Shown here piece after piece: positions 8,356 through 35,139 of a stretch of DNA of 64,000 nucleotides. Every line of letters begins with the position of its first letter. The stretch's first letter is position 1. The DNA is from an uncultured Verrucomicrobiae bacterium. GTDB lineage: Bacteria; Verrucomicrobiota; Verrucomicrobiia; Chthoniobacterales; Terrimicrobiaceae. Where the stretch lies: positions 736,001-800,000 of the forward strand of contig CAVPOC010000008.1 in NCBI GenBank assembly GCA_963706955.1, in the 5' to 3' direction. A program made the position numbers and the translations under genes. The notes beneath the pieces were generated by a model that was not told the DNA's origin, did not search any database, and saw nothing but the letters and a program-made list of their open reading frames with translations.

Positions 8356-8362
8356 GCGAGGA

Positions 8363-8658
8363 TCAAAAGCGAGCAGACGCGAGCGACTTTGGGCAAGCGG
8401 CGACCCTGATCAGATCGGCCAACTCCGCAAGATATTTTAGAAAGTCCAAGATCTCCGCCTTGCGTGCGGCCAACTCATCGCGAAGCTCAGCGTCAAAACG
8501 CCTGGCGGAGCGCTGACGCGAGCGTCCCCCCTCATCCGAGACTCGCAGATCAAGTTTCCGCAGGCGGCAAGAAATCTCCATACCGGCTGCGAGGCCTCTC
8601 TTTGCGCCTTTTCCATTATCCGTTCGGAGTCATGATTTGAAGAACCGGAGGTGATCAC
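8363..8658 (-). other. Small stand-alone TubC_N-like (beta-hairpin docking domain) ORF fused to a copy of the PKS C-terminal tail; internal frameshifts
   Basis: Stitched frames give MEKAQREASQPVWRFLAA..RKLDLRVSDEGG..RVSAPPGV..AELRDELAARKAEILDFLKYLAELADLIRVAACPKSLASARF. This resembles the N-terminus of the 24046 NRPS (LRYRAPKGSL..LAARKQEIIQLL). A GTG start overlaps the upstream TGA. Confidence 0.65.
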
Positions 8659-8851
8659 AAGACCAGCTCTTCGTGATCGATGGCCCGAGGAGCAAAAGGC
8701 GTCTTGGCGCCAGTGCACCGAGCGCTGTCGATATATTCAGCAAGTGCGGCTACGGTGGCATTCTCAAAGAAGACGCGCAGCGGAATATCCAGGCCGAAAC
8801 ACTTCGCAGGCGGGAAATAACTCGCATGGCCAATAAGGAGTGTCCGCCAAG
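8581..8851. repeat. ~270 bp repeat (T-domain C-half, HEELVL tail and start of the next ORF); partner at ~12030-12301
   Basis: Shared sequence includes gcctctctttgcgccttttccattatccgttcggag and atatattcagcaagtgc..ggtggcattctcaaagaagacgcgcagcggaatatcca. Confidence 0.93.
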
Positions 8852-11800
8852 CTGAAAAAAATTTTCATAGACTCCGATGCTTTCGCAATCGATGAGTGCG
8901 GACCAGGCTTGGGCGACCATTTTCTCGGTCTCGTTCCGTGGGGCGACAAGGCCAGGCCTTCGGTAGTCCAAAACCGGTGCAGGAAGAGCGTGCCGGTCGA
9001 TCTTGCCTGTCGGAGACAAAGGAAACTTTTCGAGGATGACAAACGCCGAGGGCACCATGTAGTCGGGAAGCTTCTCTTTGAGGAAAGCACTCAGCCTTTC
9101 ATTAAGTCCTGTAAAGCCGCCGCCATCGGCGGGAACAACATAAGCCACCAATCGACGCGTCTTCACGGCTCCCTCATCCTCTCGAACACAGACAACCGCC
9201 TGTCGGACTGCGGGGTGGGCGTTAAGCGCAGCCTCGACCTCCCCCAACTCGATGCGAAACCCTCGGATCTTCACTTGATGATCCATCCGGCCAAGAAATA
9301 CGATGTTCCCGTCCGGGAGAAATCGGCCCAAGTCCCCGGTGCGAAACAGTCTTTCACCTGGAACGAACGGCGAGTCGATGAAACGCTCTGCAGTCAATTC
9401 GGGGCGTCGCAGATAGCTGTGGGCCACCCCGTCTCCGCCAATCCAGATTTCTCCAGTCACTCCAATTGGCGCCGGCTCGCGATGAGAGTCCAAGATATAG
9501 ACTTGGGTGTTCGCGATCGGCCGACCAATCGGGATTCTGTCGGCACAGGTCCTATCGGCGGCAGTAAGGAGGTAGGTGGTCGCGAACGTGGTCGCCTCCG
9601 TAGGTCCGTAAACGTTCAGTAACCGCTGCGGCGGTCCGCTGATCAACACCTTCCTGACGGCTTCAGAATCGCATTCTTCCCCTCCAAAGAGCACGTTGCG
9701 CAAGTTGCGCAGGAGAGCCGGCCGCTCGTGTGCCAGGGCATTAAAGACCGCCGTGGTGAGAAGAAGAGTTGTAACGCCGTGCCGAGTCAACTCGGCAGAG
9801 AAGCGCTCGGGCGACAAAACGTCGTCCTGCGAAATCCCCACAAGTCTGCCGCCGTTCAACAGAGCGCCCCAGATTTCAAAAGTCGCCGCATCAAAGCAAC
9901 AATTCGAAACCTGCGCGATCACCTCCTGCGGGCCGAGTTGGACGTAGTCGCAGTTCACGACCAGTCGAGTCACGCCACGATGGGGAACACAGACCCCTTT
10001 GGGTGTGCCTGTCGATCCCGATGTAAAGAGCACGTAGGCGATCGCATCCGGACTGACCAGCTCCAAGGACTTTTCAGTCGGCGATGGGACACTTTCCCAA
10101 TCCGCATCCAGACAGATCGCCCGAAGACCTGTATTCCGAAACTGCGATTCGAGCGTTTTCTGAGTCAGAATAACCCGCGCCTCGACATCCGCGACGATAA
10201 AGGCCATCCGCTGGTGAGGATAGTTGGGATCGATGGGGACATACGCCGCCCCGGCCTTCAAAATTCCCAAAAGTCCGACGATCATTTCCGTGGACGGCTC
10301 GAGGCAGAACGCCACCTTCGAGCCAACGCGCACGCCAAGGCTCTTCAAATGGTGTGCAAGGCGGCTGGATTGATCGTCCAGCTCACCGTAAAGCACCTCC
10401 TGCTTTCCATACACCGCCGCCACGGCGTGCGGAGTGCACTTGGCTTGCTCCTGAAACAACTCGTGGATGCAGCGATCGCGGGGATAGTCCACTCTCGTTG
10501 CATTCCACTCTCTGGCAATCTGCGCCCGCTCCGTTTCCGTCAGGAGCTCATATTGCGAAATTTTTCGCCGCGGATTCTCTGCCACGCCCTCCAGCAAATT
10601 GACGTAGTGCCGAAGCAGGCGCTCCGCCGTGGACGCATCAAAGAGATCGGTGCTGTATTCGAAGGTTGTGGCGAATCCCCCTTGGCTCTCCATCATCACA
10701 ACGCTGAGATCAAATTTGGAAGTCCCGTTGTCGATGCGCAGCAATTCGAGGCCGACGTCGTGGATATTGACCGAGGGCATCGGAAAATTTTGCAGGCTAA
10801 AGCTGATATCGAAAAACGGATTGCGGTTAAGTTGTCGCTCCGGCTTAAGCTCCTCCACGAGTTTCTCGAAAGGAATTTCCCGGGAATCATACGCGCTCAA
10901 GGTGACTTCCTTGACCCTCGCGAGCAACTCGACGAATGTCGGGTCGCCGGAAAGGTCTGTCCGCAGCGCCAAAGTATTCGCGAAGAATCCGATCAGGCCC
11001 TCATACTCGCGGCGCTCTCGATTGGCGATCGGAGATCCCACCACTATGTCGCTTTGGCCGCTATATCGAGCCAGCAGCACTTTAAACGCCCCCAGAAACA
11101 CCATGAAGGGGGTCGCGCGCTCTGCATGAGCAAGGCGCCGGAGAGGTTCCACCAATTCGGGCCGCAGATGGGTTACGACCCTGGCCCCCCGAAAGCTCGA
11201 CTCCGCCGGGCGCGGTCTGTCCGAGGGGATTTGCACGGCCTCAGTGAAACCGGCAAGACGTTTGCGCCACGTTTCCACCTGGCGCCCAAAATTCGGGTTG
11301 GCAAGCTGCTGCGGCTGAGCGGCGGCAAAGTGCGCATACTGGATGGTCGGTCGAGGCAAAGGCGCACTGTGCCCACTTACGAATGCCTCATAACCCGTCA
11401 CCAGTTCGCGGATCAGAACGCCGATCGACCAACCGTCGCAAATGATGTGATGCAAAATCACCACAAAAATATGCTCTCGTTCGGAGCAGGTGAGGAGCTG
11501 CACCCGCCAGGGCGATCCGCTCGCCAGATCGATCGCTTGTTGCGCCTCGCGGACGGCTTGCCGGCACGCCGCTTCCATCCGCTCGGATTCTGGAAGATCA
11601 AAGAAATCCACCTTGCGCAGAGTGCCTGGGCGAAACGAGGTCGCGTATTGCACAGGCTCGCCGTTGCGCATCTCGAAAACAGTGCGCAGAAGATCGTGGC
11701 GCCGCACAACCTGGTTCCAACTCCATTCCAAGGCCTCTGCGTTGAATCGCCCGGAAAACCGGAGAGCCATCGGTGAGTTGTAGGCCACGTTGCCTGGATA

Positions 11801-11980
11801 GAGTTGATCCAAAAACCAGACGCCCCGTTGAGTATAGGCGAGGGGCGCCATCAGCCTCTCCGCCGCGGATTGGTCCCTTCCCAGAGGGCGATTCTCGCGC
11901 TCGACTCTGGCCAGTCGCGCGGCGAGCAGCGCCCGCTTCTCCGGCGGAAGAGAAGCGATCCTCCCAGCGAGGTCACTCAT
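8655..11980 (-). CDS. Single-module NRPS C-A-T (aliphatic residue, code read as DAFLLGVTFK); frameshift near 8795
   Basis: 1076-aa ORF with HHIICDGWS, FTSGSTGTPKG, YGPTE and LGGHSL. The C-terminus ...DHEELVL* was recovered by comparison with the 12104 paralog. Confidence 0.93.
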
Positions 11981-12029: not shown

Positions 12030-12301
12030 TACCGGCTGTGAAGCCTCTCTTTGCGCCTTTTCCATTATCCGTTCGGAGCCATGATTCGAGGAACTAGAGG
12101 TGATCACAGGACCAGCTCTTCGTGATCGACGGCCAGAGGAGCCAAAGGTGTCTTGGCGCCACTGCACCGCGCGCCGTCGATATATTCAGCAAGTGCAGCT
12201 ACGGTGGCATTCTCAAAGAAGACGCGCAGCGGAATATCCAGACCGGAAGCACTTCGCAGCCGGGAAATAACGCGCATGGCCAACAATGAGTGCCCGCCAA
12301 G
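12030..12301. repeat. Second copy of the T-tail/intergenic repeat
   Basis: Matches 8581-8851 and diverges after ...REASQPVW. Confidence 0.93.
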
Positions 12302-15300
12302 TTCGAAGAAGGTGTCGGCGATTCCCACGCGCTCCAGGCCGAGAAGATCCGCAAAAATCTCGCATAAAATCCCCTCTTCCGGTGTCCTTGGTGGACGGTA
12401 ACAATCCGCGGCGTGCTCTGGCGCGGGAAGGGCGCTGCGATCCAACTTGCCGTTGGCATTTAACGGGAGCGTCTCCAACAACACAAAAGCAGAGGGAACC
12501 ATGTAGTCCGGCAGCCTCCGCTGAAGGAAGGTCCGCAGATTGGCCGTCGACAATGAGGAGGCGCCGAGATCCGGCAACGACGGGATGTGCGCAGTCTCTC
12601 GTGATTCTCTAAGTATTCTTCGCTCCGACGATGGTCGGATCGCGTAAACATAGTAGAGTTGCGTGTTTTCAAGCAGAACGTCTTGATCTATGGAAAGATC
12701 ATAGCCATGTCCCTTAAGAAGGATGGTAATCGCTTGTAAGTTATCCTTGGTGTCAGTCTCTAAGACGATCTGCTTGATCTTTGCCCAATCGGCTTCCTCG
12801 ATGCCGCTGAGAACATCCAGCTCGCTCTTCTCCACGTTGATCTTGAGAAGATCTATGCTTTCAAGGCCCTCCTCCTGGATAATCTCGGAGAGAGCCCGCA
12901 GTGGTGCCTCAAATGTCCGGGACGAAAGTCGCAGGTCGAGGAGATCGTCACTGTCCGCGATCAGATCGGCCATTTCAGCAGCGCCCGCCTTCTGCTGGTT
13001 CGCCATATAAGTTTTTACCAGTTCTTTCTCGGCTAAGGGATCGGCATAGAAACCGGAAAAAAGGGAAAATCCGGGGAAGAAGGTGAGCGTGGCAGTCTTC
13101 GATTTGTTGGATAGCCCGCAGGGAAAAATCTTTGCGTTGGGCGCGTAGAGGGAGGCGTTGGCCGTTAAGATTTCACATGCGGAGGGATTCGGTTCGAACG
13201 CGTAGATTTTCGGCTGCCGGCAAATCTGATTGGCAAACAGCGTGAACAACCCGATGTTGGCGCCCACGTCAAAGACACAGTCTCCGTCTTTGAGCGTGAT
13301 TCCATGCCTCAAGTATGCTTGGCGCTTAAAGATCTCGTCGTAGAGATAGTCGGTCTCATGCCTGTTGAGATGAGACACGGCCATGCCATTCGGGAGGACG
13401 TAACGTCGCTTGGCATCAATCATTCGGCCCGGTTCTTTAGGAACGACATAGGCCACGAGGCGGTTCTCACCAAACTGATCCCTTGCCGCGAGGGCCGCGA
13501 CTTGCATGATCCCGGGATGCTGCTCCAAGGCGGCCTCGATTTCGCGCGGTTCGACTCTGAACCCGCGAACCTTGACTTGATCATCAACGCGACCCAAAAA
13601 CTCGATATTGCCGTCAGGCAAGTAACGGGCTAGATCCCCGCTCTTGTAGAGACGCGCTCCGGCCTCCTGGCTAAACGGATTAGGAATAAATCTTTCGGCG
13701 GTGAGCTCCGGATGATTGAGGTAACCTCGGGCCAGGCAAAGTCCGCCAATATGCAGTTCACCCGCCACACCCACGGGAACGGGCTTGAGATGCTTATCCA
13801 GCAGGTAAATCTTGGTGTTGAAAACAGGACGTCCCAAGGGGAGATTTTTCAGTTCTGTGAAGACCGCACTAGCCTCTACTCGGTAGGTCAGAACTCCCAC
13901 GGTGGCCTCGGTTGGACCATAGTGGTTCATAACGACACACCCGGGATTGAGCGACCGGAGACTCTCTATCCAGTCGAGCCGGGAAGCTTCACCGCCGAGA
14001 ATGAGAAGCTTGCGCGGCAGCACTTGCGCCGAGCGCGTGCCATTTTGCAAGGCGGCGAGGTGCGAGGGAACAATCTTTAGACAGTCAATGGCGTGCTGGC
14101 TGAAGTAATCGTCCAAAGCGTCTGCATCGCCACTCCTCTCTTCCGAGATCACGTGAAGAGCTCCCCCGCCACACAGCGAGGTAAAGACAACCGTGTTCCC
14201 CAAATCGGCTGCGATGGTTGAGACTGTTGCAAAGCTTGCGTTACGCGGCAGTTTCAACAGTTCCAAGATGCCATGGAGGTAGTTTGTTACCTGGCGATGT
14301 TCGACGGCGACTCCCTTGGGTTGCCCCGTGGATCCCGACGTATACACCACATAGACCAGGTTCATAGGCTTGGTCGCACGATGGGGGTTTCCCGCGCTCT
14401 CCCGCGCGATGGCGTGCCAATCCCGATCTACTACAATAACCGATGCTGGGGTCTCGATGACTTTCGATACCGTCCGCTCCTGAGCAATGAGCAGCGAAAC
14501 CTTGGCGTCCTCCAACATAAACGCCAGGCGAGCGGCTGGATAGCTGGGGTCCAGGGGCACATAGGCGCCTCCGGCTTTAAGAATGCCTAGCATTGCTACG
14601 ATCATTTCCAGAGAGCGCTCCACCATAACGCCCACCAGCACCTCCGGCCCTACTCCTAATCTTTGTAGGTAATGCGCGAGTTGATTGGCCCGACGGTTGA
14701 GCTCCTGGTAGCTCAGCTGCTGATCCTCGAACACCACCGAGACGGCTTCAGGCGTCTGTTCCACCTGGGCCTCAAACAATTCCTGGATGCACTGATCTCT
14801 CGGAAAATCCCTGTCCGTGTCATTCCACTCAACTACGATTCGATTTCGCTCGGAAGGCGTTATCAACGGCAATTGCGAAATCTTCCTCCGAGGTTCTTCG
14901 GCAATCGCCTCGAGCAAGACTTTATAACTTTCCAGCAGGCGCACTGGCGTCGAAGCATCGAAGAGATCGGTGCTATACTCGACAGTTGTTATGAGCCGGT
15001 CACCCGCTTCCACCACGACAACGCTCAAATCAAATTTCGAGGTTCCATTGTCGATTCGCAGCAACTCGACATCGAGGTCTGGAGCATCGACGTCGAGCAG
15101 CGGAAGATTTTGAAAGCTAAAGCTGAGGTCGAAGAACGGATTGCGGTTTAATTGCCGCTCCGGCCTAAGCTCCTCGACCAGTTTTTCGAAAGGAACTTCC
15201 TGGGAATCATACGCACTCAGCGTCACTTCGCGAACTTTGACCAGAAGTTGCACGAACGAGGGATCGCCCGAAAGATCGGTTCGAAGCGCCATCGTGTTGG

Positions 15301-16300
15301 CAAAAAATCCGATGAGGCTCTCAAGCTCACTGCGTTCACGGTTAGCGATCGGCGATCCGACGATCACATCAGTCTCACCAGAATAACGCGACAACAGGAC
15401 CTTGAACGCCGCTAACAATACCATGAACAGAGTTGCCCCTTCCCTGCGGGCCAGCTGCTGCAAAGACTCTGTCAGTTCCGGTGGGAGGTGAGTGAACACG
15501 CGTGCACCCCGGAAAGTCGGCTCCGCGGGGCGTCGCTTATCCAGCGGGATCAGTTGAGCGGCGCCGACCCCCTCCAAACGCTTTCTCCAGACCTCCACCT
15601 GGCGCCGCAGCGTTGCACCGGCAAGCTCCTGCCGCTGCCAGGCAGCATAGTCGCCATATTGGATCGGAAGCGGGGGCGACGGAGAAGTGTCACCGCGCAA
15701 AAATCGCTCGTAGCCCGAGAACAATTCTCGGACCAGCACGCCAATCGACCAGCCGTCGCAGATGATGTGATGCAGGACCATCACAAAGATGTGCTCGCGC
15801 TCGGAGCAACGAAGAAGCTTGGCACGCCACAACGGCCCCTTGGTAAGATTCAGAGGATGGCGTGCCTCGCGGACTGCTTCGGAGCGCGCCGTTTTCAGGC
15901 GCTGGGATTCAGGGAGTCGTTCCAAACTGATCGTCGACAATTTCGTTGGTCGGAATGGGGCTTCATATTGAACCGGATCGCCATTGCGCTGTTCAAACCT
16001 GGCGCGGAGTAACTCATGCCGGCGAAGAATCTCATTTAAGCTCCTTTCCAAGGCGTTGGTATCCAGTCGACCAAGAAAGCGAACTGCAATCGGTGCGTTG
16101 TAGGCCACATTCTCGGGATAAAGTTGATCCAGAAACCAAACGCCTCGCTGCGTGTAGGATAGTGGAGCGGGAACACTTCGATCTCGAGAAGGGATTCGCC
16201 CGCGGCCAGTAGTCGGACGCCCGAAAGCCGACAGGCGAGCAGCCAGCAATGCCCTCTTTTCAGGCGAAAGCGAGGTAATCCTAGCAGCGATGTCACTCAT
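12104..16300 (-). CDS. NRPS C-A(Asp/Asn-type)-[FkbM methyltransferase]-A-T
   Basis: 1398-aa intact ORF. A domain has ADLGNT, LKIVPSHL, NHYGPTEATVG (code DLTKIGHVGK). The inserted MT has VFDVGANIGLF, YAFEP and IDLLKINVEKSE, placed before LPDYMVP. T has LGGHSL. Confidence 0.95.
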   Translation of the reverse strand: MSDIAARITSLSPEKRALLAARLSAFGRPTTGRGRIPSRDRSVPAPLSYTQRGVWFLDQLYPENVAYNAPIAVRFLGRLDTNALERSLNEILRRHELLRARFEQRNGDPVQYEAPFRPTKLSTISLERLPESQRLKTARSEAVREARHPLNLTKGPLWRAKLLRCSEREHIFVMVLHHIICDGWSIGVLVRELFSGYERFLRGDTSPSPPLPIQYGDYAAWQRQELAGATLRRQVEVWRKRLEGVGAAQLIPLDKRRPAEPTFRGARVFTHLPPELTESLQQLARREGATLFMVLLAAFKVLLSRYSGETDVIVGSPIANRERSELESLIGFFANTMALRTDLSGDPSFVQLLVKVREVTLSAYDSQEVPFEKLVEELRPERQLNRNPFFDLSFSFQNLPLLDVDAPDLDVELLRIDNGTSKFDLSVVVVEAGDRLITTVEYSTDLFDASTPVRLLESYKVLLEAIAEEPRRKISQLPLITPSERNRIVVEWNDTDRDFPRDQCIQELFEAQVEQTPEAVSVVFEDQQLSYQELNRRANQLAHYLQRLGVGPEVLVGVMVERSLEMIVAMLGILKAGGAYVPLDPSYPAARLAFMLEDAKVSLLIAQERTVSKVIETPASVIVVDRDWHAIARESAGNPHRATKPMNLVYVVYTSGSTGQPKGVAVEHRQVTNYLHGILELLKLPRNASFATVSTIAADLGNTVVFTSLCGGGALHVISEERSGDADALDDYFSQHAIDCLKIVPSHLAALQNGTRSAQVLPRKLLILGGEASRLDWIESLRSLNPGCVVMNHYGPTEATVGVLTYRVEASAVFTELKNLPLGRPVFNTKIYLLDKHLKPVPVGVAGELHIGGLCLARGYLNHPELTAERFIPNPFSQEAGARLYKSGDLARYLPDGNIEFLGRVDDQVKVRGFRVEPREIEAALEQHPGIMQVAALAARDQFGENRLVAYVVPKEPGRMIDAKRRYVLPNGMAVSHLNRHETDYLYDEIFKRQAYLRHGITLKDGDCVFDVGANIGLFTLFANQICRQPKIYAFEPNPSACEILTANASLYAPNAKIFPCGLSNKSKTATLTFFPGFSLFSGFYADPLAEKELVKTYMANQQKAGAAEMADLIADSDDLLDLRLSSRTFEAPLRALSEIIQEEGLESIDLLKINVEKSELDVLSGIEEADWAKIKQIVLETDTKDNLQAITILLKGHGYDLSIDQDVLLENTQLYYVYAIRPSSERRILRESRETAHIPSLPDLGASSLSTANLRTFLQRRLPDYMVPSAFVLLETLPLNANGKLDRSALPAPEHAADCYRPPRTPEEGILCEIFADLLGLERVGIADTFFELGGHSLLAMRVISRLRSASGLDIPLRVFFENATVAALAEYIDGARCSGAKTPLAPLAVDHEELVL

Positions 16301-16307
16301 TCGAGGA

Positions 16308-19300
16308 TCAAAGGCGAGCCGGCACCGCTGGCTTGGGACGGCCGGCGGCCCTAAGTAGATCGGCCAGGCCCGCGAGGTGCTTCAAACCATCCATGGTCGT
16401 GTCGTAATCGATACCGAAATCGATCAGACAGGCAATTTCATCAACGCCGATCGCGGCAAACTTCTCAACCGTGCTCAGGCAGGATTCGGCAGTTCCAAAA
16501 AGCGAACCGTGTTCGTAGAAGCGATCAAAGGCGAGCGATAAAAGAGTCTCTTCTTCGGAAGACGAAAGTGGTCGACCTGTCGACGACAGAAAATCGAGAT
16601 GGGACTTGAGATACTCTCGAAATGGTCCACTCACAATTCGTCGCACTTCATCGGCGTTCGAACCGACAAACGCATGCAGCATTAGAGTGACCTTTCCAGC
16701 GGCTGGATCGTGGCCATGCTCGGACCGCGCCTGCCGGTAAGCGGCAATTTTTTCCGCCATTTCCTCCGCGTTGATTCGAAGGACCGCGGTCAACACATTG
16801 GCTCCGATGCGGCCAGCCTGGATGAACGTCTCGGTTGACCGCGTCGCAGTCAACCATACCGGCAGTTCCGGCTGGATCGGCCTTGGAAAAAGCACTCGCT
16901 CGGCCTGCTCACCGGTCCCGGTTTTTCCTCGGACCGGCTCCCCACGCCAGTAGCGCCGCACCGCCTCGACAACTTCGATCGTTAAGTTCGATCGTTCGCT
17001 GAACTTCTCGGGAGAGAGCATGAAATCAACGGGATGAAAGCCTGTAGCGAAAGCGATAGCAACCCGACCACGAGAAAGGTTGTCAACCAACGCCCATTCC
17101 TCAGCGATCCGAACCGGACTCTGCAGCGGCGCAATCACGCTGCCGGCGCGTATCCTAATTGTTTTCGTGATGGCCGCAAGGGCTGCCCCTAACACTGCAG
17201 GATTCGGGTAAAGCCCACCGAAACGATGAAAGTGGCGCTCAGGCGTCCAGACCGCAGAGAAGCCTCGATTGTCTGCGAACCGTGTCGCGTCAATCACGAG
17301 CTGATATTTGTCATTGGGAAACGCTGACTCATCACCGGAAAAGAAGAAGAGACTCAACTCTACCGAGGACGGCTCGGCACTGGATTCTGTCGGTGCCAGG
17401 GGGTCATTTGCGCGATTCGGCTCGCGATTCGGCTCCTTTGCGAGCAGCGCCGCGGCTTCATCAACCCGAAGAGCCTCGATCTCGGAGAGCAAATCTTCGA
17501 GACCAGGCACTTCGCTGGCTTGGGCTTGAGCAAGCGCGATCGACTCCGCCATGGCCAGGACGGTGGGAGTTCTCAAAAACTCGCCGACGGGGACGTCTAT
17601 CTCGAACCGATCTCTCACACGTGAAATTAGTTGGACGGCCATGAGCGAATTCCCGCCCAACTCGAGAAAGCTCTCACGGATGTCAAAGTCTCCAGTGCCC
17701 AACACTTGCTGCCATAGATCGGCCACTTGCCTTTCAAGCGGGTTACGGGGAGCAAGGATTTGTCGAACGTGACTTCCTCGCGGTTCCGCCGGCAATTTCT
17801 CTCCGTCGGAAGGCGCACTGGTCCAATCCTTCAAAACGAGCTTTTTCGACGTGCCGGTCGTTTCCTCCTTTTTGCGTTCGATCCAATAGCGCTGCCGCTC
17901 GAAGGGATATCCGGGCAACGCCACCCGCGCAGGCGGCTCCCCTCTATAAACATTTGCCCAGTTGACCGGCTGCCCCGCCAGCCAAAGCCTGCCCAAAGTC
18001 CAGAGTGCAAAGCCGTCTTCCGAAATCGTCTGGTTCGAACTTTGGCACGAGGAGAGAACGACGTGCTTCTTCGAAACCGCCGGATGGGACCTTGCCAGCT
18101 TCGAGAGGAGTTGGCCTGGCCCGACCTCAAGGAAGATTCTTCCTTCCGTCCGGGCCAATGCCTCGAGGGCAGGCGAGAAACGAATCGTTTCGCGCGCTTC
18201 GCGGGCCCAATAGACCGGATCCGTGAGGTCCTCTGCGGTTGCGCGTGTCCCCGAAAGAGTTGAGAAGAAGTTGGTCTCAGGCGCCCGGAAACTTATACTG
18301 GCCGCCACTCGCCGGTAGGGCTCGACGATCGGTTCCATCATCCGCGAATGGTAGCCATGCGGGACAACAATCGTTTTGTAAGCGACGCGTTGCTTGTCGA
18401 GTCTTCGCTTGAAATCCTCCATGGCCTCGTGGGGACCAGCAACGGTTGTGTGATTTGGACCGTTGATGGCGCCGATGTCCAGCGCTTCTCCCAGTAGAGG
18501 CGTGACGCCTTCTTCGCTGAGGGCCACCGCCAGCATCGCCCCGGGAGGCAATTGCTGCATCATGCGGGACCGCTCCCCCGTGATGCGGACCGCGTCTGGC
18601 AAGGAGATCACCCCGGCGACCGTGCCGGCAACAATCTCTCCAATGCTATAACCGAGGACGGATTCTGGCTCAACTCCCCAGCTTTTCCACAGCATCGCCA
18701 GAGCGTAGGAAGTCATGAAGAGAGCGGACTGGATATAAAACGCGCGTTGAAGGCAGACGCGGGCATTTTCTTGCCCCTGGGCGGTCGGGAAGATGATTTC
18801 ACGAAGATCGACATCGAAGCCCGCCTTAAACAATTCGCTGCACTCGTCGATGCTCCGACGCACGACAGGTTCGGTCTCATAGAGTCCGCGCGTCATATTC
18901 ACCTCGTGTGAACCGTGCCCGGGAAATAGGAATGTCACCGGGGGAGGCGGCCCTTCGAGGAGGCCGCTCGCGACACGCGACGAGTCATCGGATTCAATCG
19001 CCGCAACGGCCTCGGCAGTCGACCGACAAAGAACTATGCGACGCCAGGCAAATTCCGCACGCCCGGCCTGCAGAGTGAAAGCGACGCTCGCAAGATCGAT
19101 ACCGGGATTCTCTTGCAGGAATCGCGACAGATTTTGCGTCGAAGTCGCCAACGCGCTCTCCGACTTCGCGGAGATCACCAGGAGGTGCCAAGTGCGCAAA
19201 AGGTCTTCCTTTCTTGTCGATGGAGCCTCTTCGACGATCACGTGTGCGTTTGTTCCGCCGAACCCGAGCGAAGTAACCCCAGCGCGGCGAGGCCGGCTGC

Positions 19301-20541
19301 CCCGTCTCCATCGCCTCAATTCGGCATTGACAAAGAACGGACCGTCGCCAAGGCCGCACGCGGGATTTGGCTCCAGAAAGTTGACGGTGGGGGGAAGTGC
19401 TTCATGCTCCAGCGCGAGGACCGTTTTGATAAGTCCGGCTACTCCCGAGGCCGCGTCCGCGTGCCCGATGTTGCCTTTGACCGAGCCAATCGCGCACCGT
19501 TCATCGAGATCTCGCCCGGCCCCTAGAGCCAATCTGATCGCCTCGATTTCAACCGGGTCGCCTTTTTGCGTGCCCGTTCCGTGCGCCTCGATGTAGTCGA
19601 TCTCATTTGCCTCCAGACCCGCCACGGCTAGCGCCTTGCTGATGGCGGCTGCCTGCCTCGGAGCGCTGGGGGCCGTGAACCCTGATTTTGATGCGCCGTC
19701 GTTATTTACTGCCGAACCTCTGATAACTGCACGGATCGGATCGCCGTCGGCCAGAGCATTCCGTAGCGGCTTGAGAACGACCACTCCGATGCCCGAACCA
19801 AAAACCGTCCCTCGACGCGCGCGCATCGAAAGGACGCGTGTGTCCGTCCGGAGAATAGATTCCGCTTTCCTTATGAATGTAACCGGCCTTCTGCGGAACT
19901 CGGACGGAAACACCGCCCGCCACGGCCATGTCGCATTCCCGGTTTAGAAGACTCTGACACGCCACGTGCACGGCCACCAGTGACGTAGAACATGCCGTCT
20001 GGACGGTGATGGCTGGTCCCCGCAGATCTAATTTGAAGGCGACACGCGTCGCCAGGTAGTCGTTATCGCTGCCGATCACGATTTGATAGTCGTCCAGAGC
20101 CTCCTGGAGCATTTCGTCCCGGCTAACGTTTCGCACGAAGTAGGAGTTCCTGGCCGCCCCCGCGAAAACGCCTATTTCACCCTGAAACCTATACGGGTCG
20201 CATCCCGCATTCTCCAAGGCATGCCAGGCGCATTCCAAAAAGAGTCGGTGCTGCGGGTCGGTAATCTGAGCGTCGCGGGCGGACATATCGAAGAACGAGG
20301 CATCAAAGAGATCAACGCCCTCGAGCACTGCCGCGGCTCTCACATAGCGTGCGTCGAGACCTCGTCGGGAAGCCACGCCCGCGGCGTCAAGCTCTGCATC
20401 GGATAGAACCGAAATCGCTTCGAGCCCATCGCGTAGGTTCCTCCAAAAATCTTCAAGGCATCCTGCCCCGGGGAAGCGACCTGACATTCCCAGGATCGCA
20501 ATACCCGAACTCTCCGATGCTAAGCTCCCAATCACCGCCAT
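16308..20541 (-). CDS. Type I PKS KS-AT-ACP fused to a luciferase-like (MupA/Atu3671-type) monooxygenase; frameshift near 19812
   Basis: KS has TACSTSL, EAHGTGT and NIGHAD. AT has GYSIGE and HGYHS. ACP has LGGNSL. The LLM domain has SLFFFS and WTPERHFHRFGGLYPNP. No KR or DH motifs. Confidence 0.93.
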
Positions 20542-20620: not shown

Positions 20621-23600
20621 TCAAAGTAAGGCTTCTTCTCGAAAAACGTCCTTGGGCGGCTCGGAACGATTGCTCTCCTCCTCTCGAGACCTCGCAATAA
20701 AGCGACCCATCTCGGCAAGAGTCGGATGGTCGAAGACGGCGCGCAGAGGGATCTCGACTCCAAAACGACTCCGCAATTGGGAAACAACTCTGGTGGCCAA
20801 AAGGGAGTGCCCGCCCAGTTCAAAAAAACTTTCATGCGGCGCGATCGCCTCCACCTCGAGCACCTCCGACCACACCGAGGCGGTCATCTCTTCGAACGGA
20901 CTCAGCGCTGCTGAATCGTGTTGGATCTGCCTTTCGGGCTTAGGGAGTGCCAGACGATCTATCTTACCGCTCGGCGTCGTGGGCAGCTCCTCCACTCGGA
21001 CTATCCGTGAAGGAATCATGTAGAAGGGCAGCTTCTCCTCCAGGTAAGTCCTCCAACTGCTAAGGATGTTATCATCCCGGGTAACCACGTAGCCGACCAG
21101 CTGCCGCTGGCCAGTTTTCTCCTCTCGAGCGACAACAACCGCATTTTCCACTTCCGGGTGAGCCTTCAAGACAGCCTCGATCTCGCCCGGTTCAATCCGA
21201 AAACCGCGAATCTTGGTCTGTGAGTCCGCTCGCCCGATGAACTCGATGTTGCCATCAGGAAGGTATTTAACAATGTCTCCGGTGCGATAAAGCCGCTCGG
21301 CCTGGTCCCCACCAAAACGCTCGGAAACGAAGCGCTCACGCGTCAGTTCAGGCTGGTTGAGATAGCCCTCGGCCACGCCAGCTCCCCCAAGATAAAGCTC
21401 GCCTGGAACTCCCGCGGGCAAAGGATTTCCATACTTGTCGAGAACGTAGGCCGTCGTGTTGGAGATCGGCCGTCCGATCGGAACGGTCGTCGCATTCTCT
21501 TCTACATGGGTCACCGGATAGAACGTGGCAAACGTCGTGCACTCGGTCGGACCGTAAACGTGCAGCAACCGACGCGGAGGACCGCCACTTTCCAAAACTT
21601 GGCGAACCGACCTGGGGTTAACGGCCTCACCGCCAAAGAGCACCTGCTTGACGCCCTGGAAAATTCCGGCGTTTTCAGCGACCATTTCGTTGAACAAGGC
21701 GGTCGTCAAAAACACTGTGGTCACTTTCCCACGCTTGAGCTCAGCGCCTAAACGATGGGGGTCGAGGGCCACGCTTTTCGGAATCAGCACGATACACCCA
21801 CCCGTGAGCAAGGCGCCCCAAATCTCGAACGTTGCGGCATCAAAGCAAACATGAGAAAGATGTGCGATGCGATCTTGCGGGCCCAACTCCACGTAATTGG
21901 TGTTGAGCACAAGGCGCATGATGGCGCGATGCGACACGACGACCCCCTTCGGCGTCCCCGTCGATCCCGAGGTGAAAATCACGTAAGCGGGATCCCGCGA
22001 TGTCACTTCAGGTCGGGCGTTCTCTGTGGACGAGGTTCTTGCCTTGTCGCCCCCAATCAGCGACCATTCCCCGTCTAAATAGATCACCTTCGCGTTGAAC
22101 GCGGGAAGAGAGGTCGCCGCCTCCGGGATGGTCAGAATGACCGGTGTGGCAACGTCATTCAGAATGAAGGCCTGACGCTCGGCCGGATAAGCCGGATCCA
22201 GTGGGACGTAAGCGCCACCGGCTTTCAGGATTCCCAGCATCCCAATAATCATCTCGATGGATCGATCCATGCACAATGCGACACGTGATCCTGCAACGAT
22301 CCCCTGACTCCGGAGATAATCCGCGAGTCTATCGGAGCGTTCGTTCAATTCCCGGTAATTCAGGGATGCGCCTTCGCCCGCGACTGCAAGCGCTTCCGGC
22401 CGAAGGCGGGCGAGCCATTCGAATTCCTCATGGACGCATCGATCGGCGGGGTACGGCGCGGCGGTCCGATTCCAATTAACGACGATTTGCTCAGTTTCGT
22501 CTTTCGTGAGCAAGGACAACTGGCCGATGCGGATGTCGGGATGGTTCACTATCCCCTCGAGCAGTATCTCGAAATGTCGGGCCATGCGCTCGATGGTCGT
22601 CGCTTGAAAAAGATCCGTGCTGTATTCAAGCAAACCGGACAGCTGCTCCTCTTGATTTCGAAATTCCAGGAGAAGGTCAAAGCGCGTCATGCCAAAGTCG
22701 ATGGGCAACCGCTGAACCTCTAGACCGTCGAGCTTTAAGCCCTGGTCGTCCCCACGCTGGTGGAGGACGAAAGACACCTGAAACAGCGGATTCCGCAAGT
22801 GGAGACGTTCGGGACGCAATTGCTCGACCAGCACCTCGAACGGCATGTCCTGGTGGTCCCATGCTTCGATCACATTCCCATGCACGAGGCGCAGGAGTTG
22901 GCGAAAGGTTGGATTGTCGTTGCATTGTGTTCGCAGCACCAGTGTGTTGGCAAAGCAGCCGACGACAGTCTGAGTCTCGGCCATGCAGCGGTCGGACACG
23001 GCCGTCCCCACAGTGATGTCGTTCTGCCCGGAGTATCGGTGCAACAAAGTCTTAAATGCTGCCAGAAGGGTCGTGAACAGCGTGACACCCTCCCGCCGGC
23101 TCAACAGCTTGAGAGCTTGCGACAGGTCGGACGGAAGATTGAAGCGATGCGTCGCACCTCGACCGGAAGGCGAACCGCTCACGGGTCGATCCGTGGGCAG
23201 ATTCAGCTCCGCGGCACCGGCAAGCTTTCCTTTCCAATAGCCCAGCAACTCCTCGAGCATCTGGCCATTAAGACGTTCCCGCTGCCACTTCGCGTAATCG
23301 CAATACCGGCTCGTAAGCGTTTCGAGGGAGGGACGTCGACCGTTGGAATTCGCATCATAAAGAGCCGAAAGATCCCGCAGCATGACGTTGACCGACCACC
23401 CATCGACCACAAAGTGATGCGTGGTGAGCAGAAGCGCGTAGCGATCCTCCGCAAGCTGGAAGAGCGTCGCGTGCAAAAGAGGCGAGCGATCCAATGCAAA
23501 GGGTCGCCTTGCTTCGAGGGCGATCAAGCTTTGCAACTCGCGCTCTCGCTTGGGCTCTGGAATAGTCCGCAGATCGACGATTTCCAGAGGCATGCTGGTC

Positions 23601-24046
23601 CCCTCGGCGGGCACAATGATTTGGATGGGCTGAACATCGTTGACTGCGCACGTGGTCCGAAACGCTTCGTGACGTTTGATCAGTTCGCCTAGACCGCGTT
23701 CCAGTGCCGGAACGTCTAATGGGCCATTGAGGGAAAAACCCAACGCAACGTTCAGAGCGCAACTGCCCGGCTCGAGTTGTTGGAGGAACCACATCCGCTG
23801 CTGCGCAAACGAAAGCGGATAAACTTCCGGCGAGTCCGATGGCGGCGGCCTCCAGGCTTGAAACCATGGTCTGGCAACCGAGCGGTTCTGAAGGAGTTGA
23901 ATAATCTCTTGCTTGCGAGCGGCCAGGGCTTCGATTATCCCCACCGAAAGCGATCCTTTCGGAGCGCGATATCGCAACTCGTCTCCCTCCCGCCAAAGTT
24001 GAACGCCCTCCTCTTGGAGAGAGCGAAGAAGCTCCGATGCGTTCAT
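20621..24046 (-). CDS. NRPS TubC_N docking-C-A(Ile-like, DAFFLGVTFK)-T
   Basis: N-terminus MNASELLRSLQEEGVQLWREGDELRYRAPKG; HHFVVDGWS; FTSGSTGTPKG; LGGHSL. ATGA overlap with the upstream stop. Confidence 0.95.
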   Translation of the reverse strand: MNASELLRSLQEEGVQLWREGDELRYRAPKGSLSVGIIEALAARKQEIIQLLQNRSVARPWFQAWRPPPSDSPEVYPLSFAQQRMWFLQQLEPGSCALNVALGFSLNGPLDVPALERGLGELIKRHEAFRTTCAVNDVQPIQIIVPAEGTSMPLEIVDLRTIPEPKRERELQSLIALEARRPFALDRSPLLHATLFQLAEDRYALLLTTHHFVVDGWSVNVMLRDLSALYDANSNGRRPSLETLTSRYCDYAKWQRERLNGQMLEELLGYWKGKLAGAAELNLPTDRPVSGSPSGRGATHRFNLPSDLSQALKLLSRREGVTLFTTLLAAFKTLLHRYSGQNDITVGTAVSDRCMAETQTVVGCFANTLVLRTQCNDNPTFRQLLRLVHGNVIEAWDHQDMPFEVLVEQLRPERLHLRNPLFQVSFVLHQRGDDQGLKLDGLEVQRLPIDFGMTRFDLLLEFRNQEEQLSGLLEYSTDLFQATTIERMARHFEILLEGIVNHPDIRIGQLSLLTKDETEQIVVNWNRTAAPYPADRCVHEEFEWLARLRPEALAVAGEGASLNYRELNERSDRLADYLRSQGIVAGSRVALCMDRSIEMIIGMLGILKAGGAYVPLDPAYPAERQAFILNDVATPVILTIPEAATSLPAFNAKVIYLDGEWSLIGGDKARTSSTENARPEVTSRDPAYVIFTSGSTGTPKGVVVSHRAIMRLVLNTNYVELGPQDRIAHLSHVCFDAATFEIWGALLTGGCIVLIPKSVALDPHRLGAELKRGKVTTVFLTTALFNEMVAENAGIFQGVKQVLFGGEAVNPRSVRQVLESGGPPRRLLHVYGPTECTTFATFYPVTHVEENATTVPIGRPISNTTAYVLDKYGNPLPAGVPGELYLGGAGVAEGYLNQPELTRERFVSERFGGDQAERLYRTGDIVKYLPDGNIEFIGRADSQTKIRGFRIEPGEIEAVLKAHPEVENAVVVAREEKTGQRQLVGYVVTRDDNILSSWRTYLEEKLPFYMIPSRIVRVEELPTTPSGKIDRLALPKPERQIQHDSAALSPFEEMTASVWSEVLEVEAIAPHESFFELGGHSLLATRVVSQLRSRFGVEIPLRAVFDHPTLAEMGRFIARSREEESNRSEPPKDVFREEALL

Positions 24047-27000
24047 ATTTTTCCCTCCATCCATTCGCCGGTTGGGTCTTTCCCATGCGCTTCCGTGATG
24101 AGCCCTCCAGCGAGCGAGTGAAGAGGGACGTGATCGGATCCGAGAGCCAGAGGCCCGCGCAACCGCGCAGGATCGAGCCCCCCTATCTGGCAGAGGCCAA
24201 TTCCGTAGGATGACGCGGCCATCTCGAGCAACTGCGTCATCAGACCGGCCTCGATCGTGGCAAAAGAAAGGGATAAATCCCCGTAGAGCGGCTCGATGGC
24301 ATCAAGCTGGGCGACAAGAAAAATTGAGAAAGCGGCCGAATCGAACACGGGTCGATTGATCAAAAAATCATAGATCTCCGGATCGATACAGGCCCCTCCG
24401 GAGATCAGGACAAGTCTGCGACCAGCGGGATCGAAGTAGTAGGCCCCGGCGGGCAGTGATTCGACCCGCCGGGGCTTTGCATAAAAGTAGGTTTGCACGG
24501 GATATGAGCTGCCCGCCGAACCGAAGAGATATTTCGGCTGGCCGTCAACCGTCATCGAGCCGAGCCTTCCGAGGAGCCCCCTCAGCTTTGCGAAGGGAAC
24601 GGGAGCCTGCAGGAATTCTCTGTAGCTGCGACGTTTGCGATACAGCGAGATCGCGTCTTCATCCTGCATCGCGCCGAGTGCGTATGCAGGAACATTTTCG
24701 TCAAAACGGCGAAGGCCTGATCGCTCGCGCTTAAAGGACTCCCGCTCGACAGGATCGGTAAGAACCGTGGACCTGCTTCTCCTTTGCTCGTGCGCATGGG
24801 GCCCCCGCAAGGGCGCAGCGCCCTCATTTTCGCGGGTCTTGCTTTGATAACCGCGAAGCAAGCCAATGATCGTCGGGCTGCGATAGAAGTCACCGATCCT
24901 GGGGCGATAACCAAGCGTTTCGTCAAGACGATTGACAATTCGAATCATGTCAATGGAAGTCGCCCCGTATTCGAGAAGACTGACTTCGGGATCGATGTCT
25001 TTAAGGCGGAGAACGCTTACCACCAGCTCGCGGATCTGCTCGAGGCTGGCCAGATGCGGGGATGGCGAATGCCCGGCAGAAGCAGCGGCCTCCGGCGGCT
25101 CGGGAAGTGCCTGGCGATCGACCTTCCCATTGGCCGTTAATGGAAGGGCATCGAGAAAGAGATAGGTTGCCGGCACCATGTAATTGGGCAATTTCTGCGC
25201 AAGGAATGCCTGCAAATCTGCGGATGCGGGGCCAGCCGCTTGATCGCCCACGGCGTAACCGACAAGCCGCTTGGGGCCGTCCCGGGGACCGTTGGCCACC
25301 ACGGCAGCGGCCGAAATTCCTGGGTGCTCTGCCATCGCCGCTTCGATCTCCCCTAACTCGACGCGGTATCCCTGTATCTTGACCTGAAAGTCCTCCCTGC
25401 CTAGGAACTCGATGTTGCCGTCAGGCAAATAGCGGCCGAGATCTCCCGTCTTGTACAACCGACTTCCGGTTCGGGGGTGATAGACGAAGTTGGCCCGGCT
25501 CTTTTCCTCGTCCCGCCAATAGCCTTTGGCCAATCCAATTCCCCCGATGTAGAGCTGCCCAGCGACCCAGAACGGACGGGGATTCAGAGCGTCGTCGAGC
25601 ACATGGAAACTCTGGTTCATCATCGGTCTCCCGTAAGGGATGCTCTTCCAGCTGGGATCCGCCGTCTCGATCGGATAGAGAACCGACCAAATAGACGCCT
25701 CCGTGGCGCCCCCGAGACTGATCACCTGGACATCTTTGCCTAGAGCCTTAATCCGATCCGGCAAGCTTACCGGGACCCAGTCCCCGCTCAGAAGCACCAG
25801 ACGAAGAGAATGCAGCGAGAATTCGGGTCGACCGGACAGATACTCGACCAGTAACTCCATCAGGGCCGGCACGGAGTTCCATACGGTCACCTTTTCCTGA
25901 GCGACGATTTGCGCCCAATGTGCCGGGTCTCGCATCCCAGAGACATCAGGAATAATGATCGTTCCCCCGGCGGCCAGTGTGCCAAAGATGTCGTAGACCG
26001 ACAGATCGAAGCTTAAGGCAGAGAGAGCCAGCACCCGGTCTGCGGCGGCCACGCCGAAACGCCGATTGATGTCGAGGATTGTATTAACCGCTCCGCGATG
26101 GTCGATCATCACGCCCTTTGGCTCGCCTGTGGAGCCCGACGTGTATATCACATAAGCCAGATCTTCGGCTCGCTGCACTTGATCCAAAGGTGTTTTTTCC
26201 AGGCCTTCCAAGGACACATCACTGACAGACAACCGCTGGATATCCCGTGGCCATTCTACGATCTTATCGATGGGAGGTTGAGTTAAGACCAATTCAATTT
26301 GGCCGTTGTCCAGCAGATGCCACAGGCGCTCCTTAGGAAGATTCGGGTCGATAGGAAGATAGGCAGCGCCGGAGCAAAGAACCCCAAGAACGGCCACCAC
26401 CTGCTCCCAGCCTTTTTCCATCACCACTGCCACGAGGCGGTTGGGGCTGCTACCACGGCGGCGCAGCCAGTGAGCCACCTGCAGTGACCGCTGGGACAGT
26501 TCGGTGTACGTAAGACGACCAGATGGCGAGATGATGGCTGGATGGTCGGCCCTCCGGGATACCTGCTCCGAAAACAATGTATGCAACAATCCGGTCGAGG
26601 GCTGCGCCTGTGTAGCGTTGGCAGAAGCTTGCAGTTTGAGGTGGGCAGGGGGAATTAGCTTTAGCACTGTATCCGACCGGCTCTCTTGCCAACTCCTCGC
26701 GTCATCCGCCAAGCGACGCAGAAAATGTAAGTAAGATCCAAACATCTCCTCTACCATGCCGCTTGGAAACAGCTCCTCCACGACGTCCCAATCGAGCACG
26801 AGCGATCCCCTTTGTTCGTTGATCTGATGGTCAATGAACACTTGCGGAGTTTGGGTAATGGTGTAGACGACCTCGCCGAGCCAATCCATCGGGCTAGAAT
26901 CCCGGAATTGGAGATCGGCCGAGAGAAGGCTCGTGAAGACGACCGGCATGATCGCCCGAAAGCCACTGTCTTGACGCTTGGCAAGCTGCCGAATGACTTG

Positions 27001-28081
27001 AACCCCGCTCATGGAGCTATGTTTCAGATCCTCGTCGAGCTGCTGCTGAACATGGAGGGCCCGAGTCTCAAAGGTGGGCTGGCTCTCGTTATCGATCCCA
27101 AGGAGGGAAGAAGAAGTGAAGTCGCCCACTACGCCCTTTAACCGAGGGTCACGGGCCATTCGATTAAACAATGTTACGTTGATGGTTATCCGAGGGGACT
27201 TACTCCACACCTTGAGGACTTCAGAGAAAGCAGCCAGCAAGAGCAGTGTAGGCCTGAGTCTTCGGCTGGACGCCTGGTCCTTCAGTTGGGACCATATTTC
27301 CGCATCAAGTCGGGCATGGAAGCGCTTAAACCGGGAGCGAGGAAGGTCGCTAGGATTTTTTGCAAGTGGCAGCTCCGGCGCGGGCGGCAAAGAGGTCAGT
27401 CGGTTGTGCCAATAGTCCTCGGCTCGTCGGTATACATCGCTATCCCGCAGGGAAGTCTCTGCCATGACATAGTCTCGAAATGAAAGCTCTAGCGCAGGTA
27501 AATGAGTGGCGGAATCTTGGTAAAATTGCGACCACTCGGCAAAGAGCAGATTCCTGCTTCTTGCATCCACCACGAGCGCATCGAAACTCAAATGCAGTCG
27601 GAATCGCTGGTCATCCAGAAGGCTAGCGCGAACCTCGAACAACGGCCACTGATCGCTGGGCAGCACTTGGTGCGACATACTCTCGCGAACCGCATTCAGA
27701 CCGGACTGGACCGTGTCGGGATCAGCCCTCCTCAGGTCGAAGGTTTTGATTTTATAATGAGGAACCGTCTTTAAAATGCGCTGGCGCCCATCGGACGACA
27801 CGATCGCCCGCAGCATATCGTGACGATCAATCAATTGCTGCCAGGCAAGGTTGAGGCGCTCCAGATCCAGGCCTTCACAGTCAATTTCGAAGTAGCGGTG
27901 AGTCGTTACACCCCCCAGCTCAACGCCTTCCAGCCGACCGGCCCAGGTACGCCTGCTGGATATCGGTTAGAGGAAAAGGTAGATGCCGCTCCTCTGCCAC
28001 GGCAACAATCGTAGGCAGCTGGCGCAGAAAACCCTGACTCTGTGAACTACTATCTTCCGGCTTCGCGACCGCGGGGATCAT
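24043..28081 (-). CDS. NRPS Cy-A(Cys)-T-Ox, thiazole-forming module; frameshift near 27925, start approximate
   Basis: Upstream frame gives PFPLTDIQQAY. Cy has DALVVDARS and PVVFTS. A has FDLSVYD, WNSVP, LLSGDW and SLGGATEASIWS (code DLYNLSLIWK). The C-terminal nitroreductase-like oxidase has RRSYREF and SAGSSYPVQTY. Confidence 0.93.
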
Positions 28082-29369: not shown

Positions 29370-29604
29370 AAAGTTGAAGCGAGGCGGGAAAGACAAGGTC
29401 CTCGCCACATGCGCAAATCTCCGCCGTCTGACTCGTTCAGAGACGGAATTGATTGAGCAAAAAGGTCATCCCAACGAGCAAGGGAATTTCGACCAAGGGC
29501 GGCAGCTTGCCCTGGCCGGGAACTTGCGCTGAGACGATCGACAACCTTCCATCGCAGATCCGAGAATCTGCCGTCACATGCCTGCATCCCCTGATTCAAA
29601 TCCC

Positions 29605-30489: not shown

Positions 30490-30608
30490 AAATTCAAGCG
30501 GTCCTTTGCCCGGATATCGTGCCGGGCGTGAAGTTTGGGCGCAAGCAAGGCGATGCCACGCCGATCGTCTCGTCGGTCACATCCCTCATCGCCGTCCCAG
30601 GATCGCGT

Positions 30609-30645
30609 CATCGTCCGCACGACCGCCTCATCCGTGCGGACGATG
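30609..30645. other. Perfect 13-bp inverted repeat (11-nt loop) between wzm and wzt
   Basis: catcgtccgcacg-accgcctcatc-cgtgcggacgatg; no U-tract follows. Confidence 0.7.
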
Positions 30646-30744
30646 CTAGTGACGGGCAAGTTGGTCGATTTTACACGGGTCCAGCGGAAACATCGTCCTT
30701 GACGGAGCGAGTTTTCGTTCGAGTCTCTGGCGGCTGAGAAAGCC

Positions 30745-32015: not shown

Positions 32016-32222
32016 GCGCCGAAGGCTTAGTGTTCGTCCTTGAAAGATCTTGGGCTCGAGTTTGCCGCAGTGGGCCGGCCTGGCTCGACGGCAAAGAAGC
32101 TAACCAGGACATGGTCGGTTCGATGAGATACCGTCGTTGGCGGGATATCGAGCCGGAATTCCTAAACAGCCATTGCATAAGAAACGGGCCGCTTTGAACA
32201 GGCAGTTTCGCACTACACGTTT

Positions 32223-33161: not shown

Positions 33162-33166
33162 AGCCA

Positions 33167-34978: not shown

Positions 34979-35139
34979 TGACGCCGGCAGGTCCTGAGCA
35001 AGGTTGGAGCGGTTGGTCCGCGAGAGGAAAATCCGACTCTCTTCTAAGCCATCCCGAGTCGGCAGGTGCGCGAAGGTTCACGTCAACGACCGAATTCGTT
35101 CGACTGTCTGATGTTCGTGGCAAGTCGGAGCGTGGCGCT

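Follow-up and report, generated by a model that had tools for sequence, protein, structure and literature searches.

The 64,000-nt window analyzed here, from the genome of an uncultured Verrucomicrobiae bacterium, contains a polyketide synthase (PKS) gene that is predicted to encode one cis-acyltransferase (cis-AT) PKS module protein of ca. 1,410 aa, situated inside a nonribosomal peptide synthetase (NRPS) assembly line. The protein consists of a ketosynthase (KS), an AT, a carrier protein (CP) and a luciferase-like monooxygenase (LLM). The LLM probably oxygenates C2 of an Ile-derived beta-keto thioester held on the module's own carrier. The best explanation for the whole, in which we place moderate confidence, is an intact KS-AT-CP-LLM module whose product would undergo hydroxylation and loss of one carbon, leading to an Ile-derived alpha-ketoamide. 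Alpha-hydroxylation appears as the well-supported step, and the alpha-ketoamide with one-carbon loss is plausible by analogy with published clusters.

Pfam delineates a single KS-AT-CP-LLM module without reductive domains spanning positions 16308-20541 of the minus strand. The earlier note, made from the letters alone, had proposed this same domain order and the lack of reductive domains, and both are confirmed by the Pfam matches, by the NCBIfam family TIGR04020, by diagnostic motifs and by the distance of only ca. 124 residues between the end of the AT (residue 605) and the start of the carrier (residue 729), a stretch that could not accommodate a ketoreductase (KR). Additionally, Pfam reported no KR, dehydratase or enoylreductase families in either of the two open reading frames (ORFs) of the module, and neither Pfam nor NCBIfam found an aminotransferase family in the module protein, where the linker from carrier to LLM is ca. 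60 aa. The ORF 16308-19913(-), ending at the stop codon of the PKS gene (16308-16310), also matches KS-AT linker families in Pfam. The residues required for elongation by type I modular PKSs are all present, namely the Cys-His-His of the KS, the Ser and Arg (GERSRMM) of the AT and the Ser of the carrier. A scan of the 4.16-Mb genome revealed no second type I PKS KS, as the remaining six PF00109 matches occupy FabF/FabB-sized open frames (347-463 aa).

The motifs of the AT are non-canonical, with GYSIGE for GHSxGE and HGYH for HAFH. Among 61 ATs found upstream of CP-LLM in the collected homologs, GYSIGE occurs in 22 and HGYH in 19, the latter taken from the HGYH count alone because the parse of the second motif was partly off register. 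Judged by this recurrence, the unusual motifs are a feature of the clade and not a defect. HAFH is the malonyl motif, and the AT is probably malonyl-specific. A hydroxymalonyl-type extender, considered on the basis of GYSIGE and HGYH, was rejected as unsupported, since these motifs mark the clade and HGYH is close to HAFH.

The LLM exceeds the cut-off of TIGR04020 by a wide margin (454.1 versus 244.45 bits), its residues 853-1183 covering positions 1-340 of the 341 in the profile, and the same region of ORF 16308-19913(-) matches Pfam Bac_luciferase (4.5e-46). From these matches it is assigned as a full-length FMN monooxygenase of the MupA/Atu3671 family. The best match among solved structures is the Ox domain of PuwE (PDB 6KET), which aligns with 336 of 350 query residues, followed by LLM and LuxA chains with E-values from 1e-25 to 6e-15; a luciferase-type TIM-barrel fold is thereby predicted. 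According to PMC10952193, MupA hydroxylates in vitro the alpha-carbon of a beta-keto thioester bound to an acyl carrier protein (ACP), refuses both the beta-hydroxy analog and a free pantetheine substrate, depends on a flavin reductase encoded outside its own cluster, and yields an unstable alpha-hydroxy-beta-keto thioester. The need of MupA for a beta-keto group would explain the absence of a KR in the window module, in which the carrier lies directly upstream of the LLM; the beta-keto requirement itself is known from MupA. A module lacking a KR would suit the LLM, as the beta-keto group would be left in place to activate C2. No flavin reductase was seen among the cluster ORFs scanned, and Flavin_Reduct and FMN_red genes located elsewhere in the genome, on contigs C3, C11 and C13, are candidates for this function. 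The genome contains one other luciferase-like monooxygenase, outside the cluster (G000:C5:71972-72808; a 364-aa open frame with 149.6 bits to PF00296).

The PKS gene has NRPS genes on both sides. An Ile-type module composed of condensation (C), adenylation (A) and peptidyl carrier protein (PCP) domains lies directly upstream, with a gap of 79 nt, and the start codon of the downstream NRPS gene is 7 nt past the PKS stop. The specificity codes, taken by motif position, are DAFFLGVTFK for the upstream and DLTKIGHVGK for the downstream A domain; each is one position off the reference code for Ile (DAFFLGVTYK) or Asp (DSTKIGHVGK) given in Supplementary Table 7 of PMC12858407. The location of the module between Ile-type and Asx modules, also claimed in the earlier note, is therefore upheld with codes that deviate by one position each. 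The Ile-type module would provide the KS with its aminoacyl or peptidyl donor. An FkbM-family methyltransferase, located by Pfam at residues 1011-1201, interrupts the Asp-type A domain and suggests an O-methylated Asp. FkbM inserts also accompany LLM domains in many homologous NRPS proteins among the matches listed. The downstream C domain was also considered as a specialized one, an idea that was discarded because it shares 79.8% identity with a paralog located after an ordinary NRPS module and 63.6% with a second paralog, with no specialization visible.

We propose that the (thiazolyl-)isoleucyl chain carried by the upstream PCP would pass to the KS, which would condense it with the malonyl-carrier to form a gamma-amino-beta-keto thioester, as suggested by the order of the domains and by catalytic motifs that are all intact. 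The beta-keto group would persist for want of a KR, and the fused LLM would hydroxylate the activated alpha-carbon using FMNH2 from a reductase encoded elsewhere, a step that is based on the family membership of the LLM and on the biochemistry of MupA. A further oxidation, accompanied by the loss of one malonate carbon out of two, would then leave a carrier-bound 3-amino-4-methyl-2-oxohexanoyl unit, an Ile-derived alpha-keto-beta-amino acid, which the downstream C domain would couple to the possibly O-methylated Asp, generating the alpha-ketoamide. The carbon loss and the coupling are proposed by analogy with published assignments of a "C1 extension". The coordinates of the module, its neighbors and the frame-split genes discussed below are collected in Table 1.

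Table 1. Features of the KS-AT-CP-LLM module and its surroundings, and frame-split genes of the same assembly (positions in the window unless a contig is given).
Feature	Position	Strand	Evidence
KS, N-terminal part with active-site Cys (TACSTS)	19702..20541	-	Pfam ketoacyl-synt E 4.3e-65; translation
KS, C-terminal domain with catalytic His motifs EAHGTGT and GNIGH	19377..19730	-	Pfam Ketoacyl-synt_C 1.5e-42; sequence
AT with GYSIGE and HGYH motifs	18099..18935	-	Pfam Acyl_transf_1 3.2e-46; motif counts
Carrier, PCP-like LGGNSL	17544..17729	-	Pfam PP-binding 4.1e-15
C-terminal FMN-dependent LLM, MupA/Atu3671 family (predicted)	16365..17357	-	TIGR04020 454.1 bits; PDB 6KET E 9.3e-101
One extra base in a GC-dinucleotide run, shifting the KS frame	19817	.	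Lacking in P0002 and in environmental contigs
Cy-A(Cys, DLYNLSLIWK)-PCP-nitroreductase-type Ox, predicted thiazole-forming; first operon gene	24043..27834	-	Pfam; motifs/code
TubC_N docking domain-C-A(Ile-type, DAFFLGVTFK)-PCP	20621..24064	-	Pfam; specificity code
C-A(Asp-type, DLTKIGHVGK, with inserted FkbM methyltransferase)-PCP	12104..16300	-	Pfam; specificity code
Further C-A-PCP modules	below 12104	-	Pfam; motifs
rpoC, frame-split	G000:C3:41481-45453
dnaE, frame-split	G000:C8:392453-395501
carB, frame-split	G000:C7:75128-78281

A PKS with a luciferase-like oxygenase following an Ile module has been linked to a C1 extension for calyxamide and keramamide, according to PMC12858407 and PMC8597712. 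Supplementary Table 6 of PMC12858407 gives for calyxamide (cax) the order A(Ile)-CP, KS-AT-KR-CP (CaxD), a 411-aa luciferase (CaxE), C-A-MT-CP and HC-A-Ox-CP, and that paper describes CaxE as a homolog of KrmP. The window cluster resembles these lines from "Candidatus Entotheonella" (CaxC-CaxD-CaxE-CaxF, with the homologs KrmO and KrmP) in the succession of an Ile module, a cis-AT PKS with a luciferase-like oxygenase and a C-A-MT-CP module, as well as in the presence of a Cys-thiazole module with an Ox domain in the same line. Nevertheless, CaxD/KrmO have the order KS-AT-KR-CP and their luciferase is a separate protein, whereas the window module lacks a KR and has its LLM fused behind the carrier. 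Methylation concerns Ser in cax and an Asp-type residue in the window, the thiazole module is downstream in cax and upstream in the window, and the cax/krm host belongs to the Tectomicrobia and that of the window to the Verrucomicrobiota. The keramamide-type precedent that the earlier note invoked thus stands as regards a published C1 extension by a PKS and a luciferase after Ile, and fails as regards the module itself, because of the KR and the separate luciferase of cax/krm.

Other flavin-dependent oxygenases of assembly lines show partial likeness. MupA, from the trans-AT PKS for mupirocin and namesake of TIGR04020, belongs to the same family as the window LLM, and its substrate logic (a carrier-bound beta-keto thioester, an obligatory beta-keto group and an external flavin reductase) would fit the window module. 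However, it is free-standing and works in a trans-AT bimodule for alpha-hydroxylation that includes a KS0; what it forms is then ketoreduced with both carbons kept, whereas the window LLM is fused in a cis-AT hybrid module that feeds a C domain. The puwainaphycin synthetase PuwE likewise has an LLM fused into a PKS module that lacks a KR and feeds an NRPS module, but in PuwE an aminotransferase separates the PKS portion from the Ox, the substrate is a fatty-acyl chain and the product a 3-amino-2-hydroxy acyl unit; the window module has no aminotransferase, and its amino group would come from Ile. In myxoglucamide biosynthesis, the C-Ox didomain of MxgE is also an FMN-dependent oxygenase of an NRPS/PKS line, required, as shown by mutagenesis, for an alpha-hydroxy/alpha-ketoamide, although its Ox is fused to a C-like domain and follows a fully reducing PKS module, both carbons being kept to give a gamma-amino acid. 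Finally, the NRPS lines for myxoprincomide and jahnellamide, from myxobacteria, reportedly include one PKS module linked to an alpha-keto-beta-amino acid (2-oxo-beta-leucine and alpha-keto-beta-methionine). PMC9811515 states that jahnellamides contain alpha-keto-beta-methionine.

Searches with the LLM as query retrieved 6,562 proteins of 660-2,102 aa (E <=0.001) among 8,000 candidates scored, and 1,200 longer proteins among 3,214 candidates. Among 241 collected proteins, that of the window included, 48 have the order KS-AT-CP-LLM and 10 are AT-CP-LLM fragments; most of the remainder have the LLM inside an A domain. We constructed a tree of 243 LLM domains with FastTree, using the domain context as label. 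On this tree, 3 label changes are enough to account for the 59 AT-CP-LLM rows, compared to a mean of 53 after shuffling of the labels, and none of 500 shuffles was as low. The window LLM is included in a pure clade of 30 rows (SH-like support 94) and a second pure AT-CP-LLM clade contains 25 rows (support 100). Both are the first two branches of the midpoint-rooted tree and hence adjacent, compatible with a single origin. The LLMs from two reducing-PKS proteins and from a PuwE-like protein are located outside both clades. At the level of loci, the order KS-AT-CP-LLM-C-A was found in 9 of 80 from species-representative genomes, belonging to Pyrinomonadaceae (2), Actinocrinis, Leptolyngbya, Streptomyces (2), Burkholderiales, Polarisedimenticolia and Verrucomicrobiae, with A-CP directly upstream on the same strand in five of the nine; three more loci are cut at the LLM, which is followed by C-A. 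A different context occurs in 28 of the 80 (L009, L015-L017, L021, L025 and L027, among others), where the LLM is embedded in an A domain and CP-KS-AT comes next. By its domain order, the cassette of an NRPS, a KS-AT-CP-LLM and a C-A is classed as a known module type, widespread over several phyla, and that of the window as a new member in an unusual phylum.

Several points weigh against an alpha-ketoamide formed with loss of one carbon. The cluster and the members of its LLM clade are known from their genes alone, and KrmP/CaxE, MupA and the myxoprincomide/jahnellamide modules are absent among the 240 matches listed and the 80 loci, leaving the clade without a chemically defined anchor. The tree was built with a quick method, its rows are the best matches to the window LLM, a sampling that favors clustering, and none of them has known chemistry. 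The analogy with cax/krm is not one-to-one, given the KR in their PKS and their free-standing LLM; PuwE, which provides the closest solved structure, has been assigned a plain alpha-hydroxylation that leads to the 3-amino-2-hydroxy acyl unit; and MxgE yields its alpha-hydroxy/alpha-keto group with no carbon lost. Also, the first gene of the operon opens with a Cy domain and has no loader, so that the gene order may differ from the biosynthetic order. In the open literature searched, one-carbon extension to ketoamides is assigned by cluster architecture only, and no paper describing the enzymology of the carbon loss was found there.

In an alternative outcome, the LLM would hydroxylate C2 once and both malonate carbons would be kept. 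This would give a 4-amino-2-hydroxy-3-oxo acid residue, or else its tautomer or a reduced derivative produced by an enzyme encoded elsewhere. Single hydroxylation has the best biochemical precedent, being the only chemistry demonstrated for the family, with MupA; it is also the reaction assigned to PuwE, whose Ox is the nearest solved structure (E 9.3e-101), and MxgE oxidizes the alpha-carbon with the carbons all kept. Against this, alpha-hydroxy-beta-keto thioesters are unstable, as stated in PMC10952193, and the aminotransferase with which PuwE takes away the beta-keto group has no counterpart in the window module. Furthermore, the tree includes a single PuwE-like protein, P0123 (KS-AT-gap-LLM-C-A, with a match to Pfam PF00202), and a long branch leads to its LLM, with a path length of at least 1.1 from every AT-CP-LLM row among the listed neighbors; published clusters with the order Ile-PKS-LLM are assigned to C1 extension. 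We thus consider plain alpha-hydroxylation rather unlikely as the final outcome.

Returning to the alpha-ketoamide with one-carbon loss, it is conceivable, and we advance it tentatively, that the fused KS-AT-CP-LLM without a KR is a self-contained module for "one-carbon extension plus alpha-keto warhead", the resulting peptide being a thiazole-containing, Ile-derived alpha-ketoamide. Such a module may dispense with the KR and the free-standing oxygenase of Entotheonella, and the GYSIGE/HGYH AT and the LGGNSL carrier may be the marks of its clade.

A further option would be the insertion of oxygen, with the LLM acting on the beta-keto group as a Baeyer-Villiger-type oxygenase, so that the backbone would acquire an ester in the form of a glycolate-type depsi linkage. 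Some luciferase-fold enzymes do carry out Baeyer-Villiger chemistry. PMC10952193 counts it among the reactions of flavin monooxygenases and names the PKS-associated Baeyer-Villiger monooxygenases OocK and LmbC_OX, but it also describes MupA, the characterized family member, as attacking the alpha-carbon enolate. No TIGR04020 member is assigned to a Baeyer-Villiger reaction in the literature examined. To our knowledge, OocK is not of the LLM fold, and we regard oxygen insertion as very improbable.

The region 16308-20541 covers two ORFs in different frames, 19702-20541(-) and 16308-19913(-), the frame changing within FDARA / GTVFGSG. The near-identical database protein P0002, with a 100% identical LLM, reads FDARGRGTVFGSG without interruption, which indicates one surplus base in the window. 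Positions 19300-20300 were compared with Logan contigs from four soil or rhizosphere runs, each belonging to a different study: in all four, the contig covering the site omits base 19817, reported as a single indel. Orthologs with 75-94% identity are unbroken, with 1,406-1,427 aa, and that of a Verrucomicrobiae metagenome-assembled genome (MAG) is an unbroken ORF of 1,430 aa; intact orthologs include P0003 and L071:4776-9068. Since the extra base is missing in the four runs and in P0002, the split of the KS is an assembly artifact and the gene is intact in nature. Essential large genes of this assembly are similarly affected, because three of the four checked (rpoC, dnaE and carB) are frame-split and only rpoB is whole. 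The genome is thus rich in single-base indels, and frame breaks in the window are not to be taken for pseudogenes without support from reads.

Other frame breaks in the cluster affect the N-terminus of the Cy domain, a PCP, an A domain (near 6013-6104) and C domains (near 4325-5386). The Cy of the first gene extends upstream in another frame, at 27835-27960 (…FPLTDIQQAYLGRS… then …ELGGVTTHRYFE…), and the PCP near 8790 drops out of frame after GGHSLLAMRVISRLRS. Together with the break in the KS, these could be taken as signs of a dead module in a decaying pathway without product, which we consider hardly credible, given that the KS indel is missing in the four independent runs and in P0002, that rpoC, dnaE and carB are broken in the same assembly and cannot be pseudogenes, and that the LLM fits its family model end to end. 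For the KS, this reading is largely refuted. The remaining breaks are probably assembly errors of the same kind; the pseudogene look of the cluster probably reflects an indel-rich assembly and not biology, the comparison with reads covering the KS break.

The NRPS/PKS operon runs on the minus strand from ca. 27.9 kb down past the start of the window, and the line continues into the adjoining 20 kb (L001, G000:C8:716001-736000), the cluster measuring ca. 47 kb in all. The first protein seems to start only ca. 30 residues ahead of its Cy domain, and no loading module was seen upstream of the first gene on this strand. Six further A codes, from window positions 1-11980 and L001 10321-20000, are near-identical and of hydrophobic type (DAFLLGVTFK, DAFFLGMTFK, DAFFLGVTFK twice, DAFLFGLTVK and DAFFLGATFK), and the C domains from three consecutive genes are paralogs with 62-80% identity. 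The assembly line looks as if built by internal duplication. It ends (L001 8405-10412) with a lone C domain, in a 390-aa ORF with an N-terminal frame break (L001, near 10321-10412), followed by a phosphopantetheinyl transferase gene. No thioesterase was seen in the scan of the cluster through the end of the line in L001, and the chain may be released by the terminal C domain. Polysaccharide-type genes flank the cluster on both sides (window 29578-37005 and L001 3353-8357), including those for an ABC-2 transporter, a NAD epimerase/dehydratase, pyruvyl transferases, glycosyltransferases, an asparagine synthase and a nucleotidyl transferase.

Among the 80 loci, the LLMs most similar to that of the window come from named MAGs of Terrimicrobium (81%) and of the Verrucomicrobiae (79%), the rest having at most 52%. 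The runs containing the stretch are labeled as soil or rhizosphere metagenomes. A soil verrucomicrobium is thus the probable host, judged by a single gene and not by phylogenomics. At least part of it was present in 20 of the 24 runs listed, from 11 studies, with half or more of the sampled words in seven; in four RNA-labeled runs, the fraction of these words was as low as 0.05-0.14.

Serine and cysteine proteases are the targets of alpha-ketoamides, which act on them as reversible covalent warheads, and we know of almost no characterized nonribosomal peptides from Verrucomicrobiota. The window module leaves unchanged the general picture of one-carbon extension to ketoamides, of which it would be a compact, single-protein version; the intact orthologs and the widespread organism make it convenient for reconstitution in vitro. 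If the proposed pathway is true, a common verrucomicrobium of soil and rhizosphere makes a peptide with an electrophile of the protease-inhibitor type, and the cassette would provide a compact and portable means of introducing ketoamide warheads.

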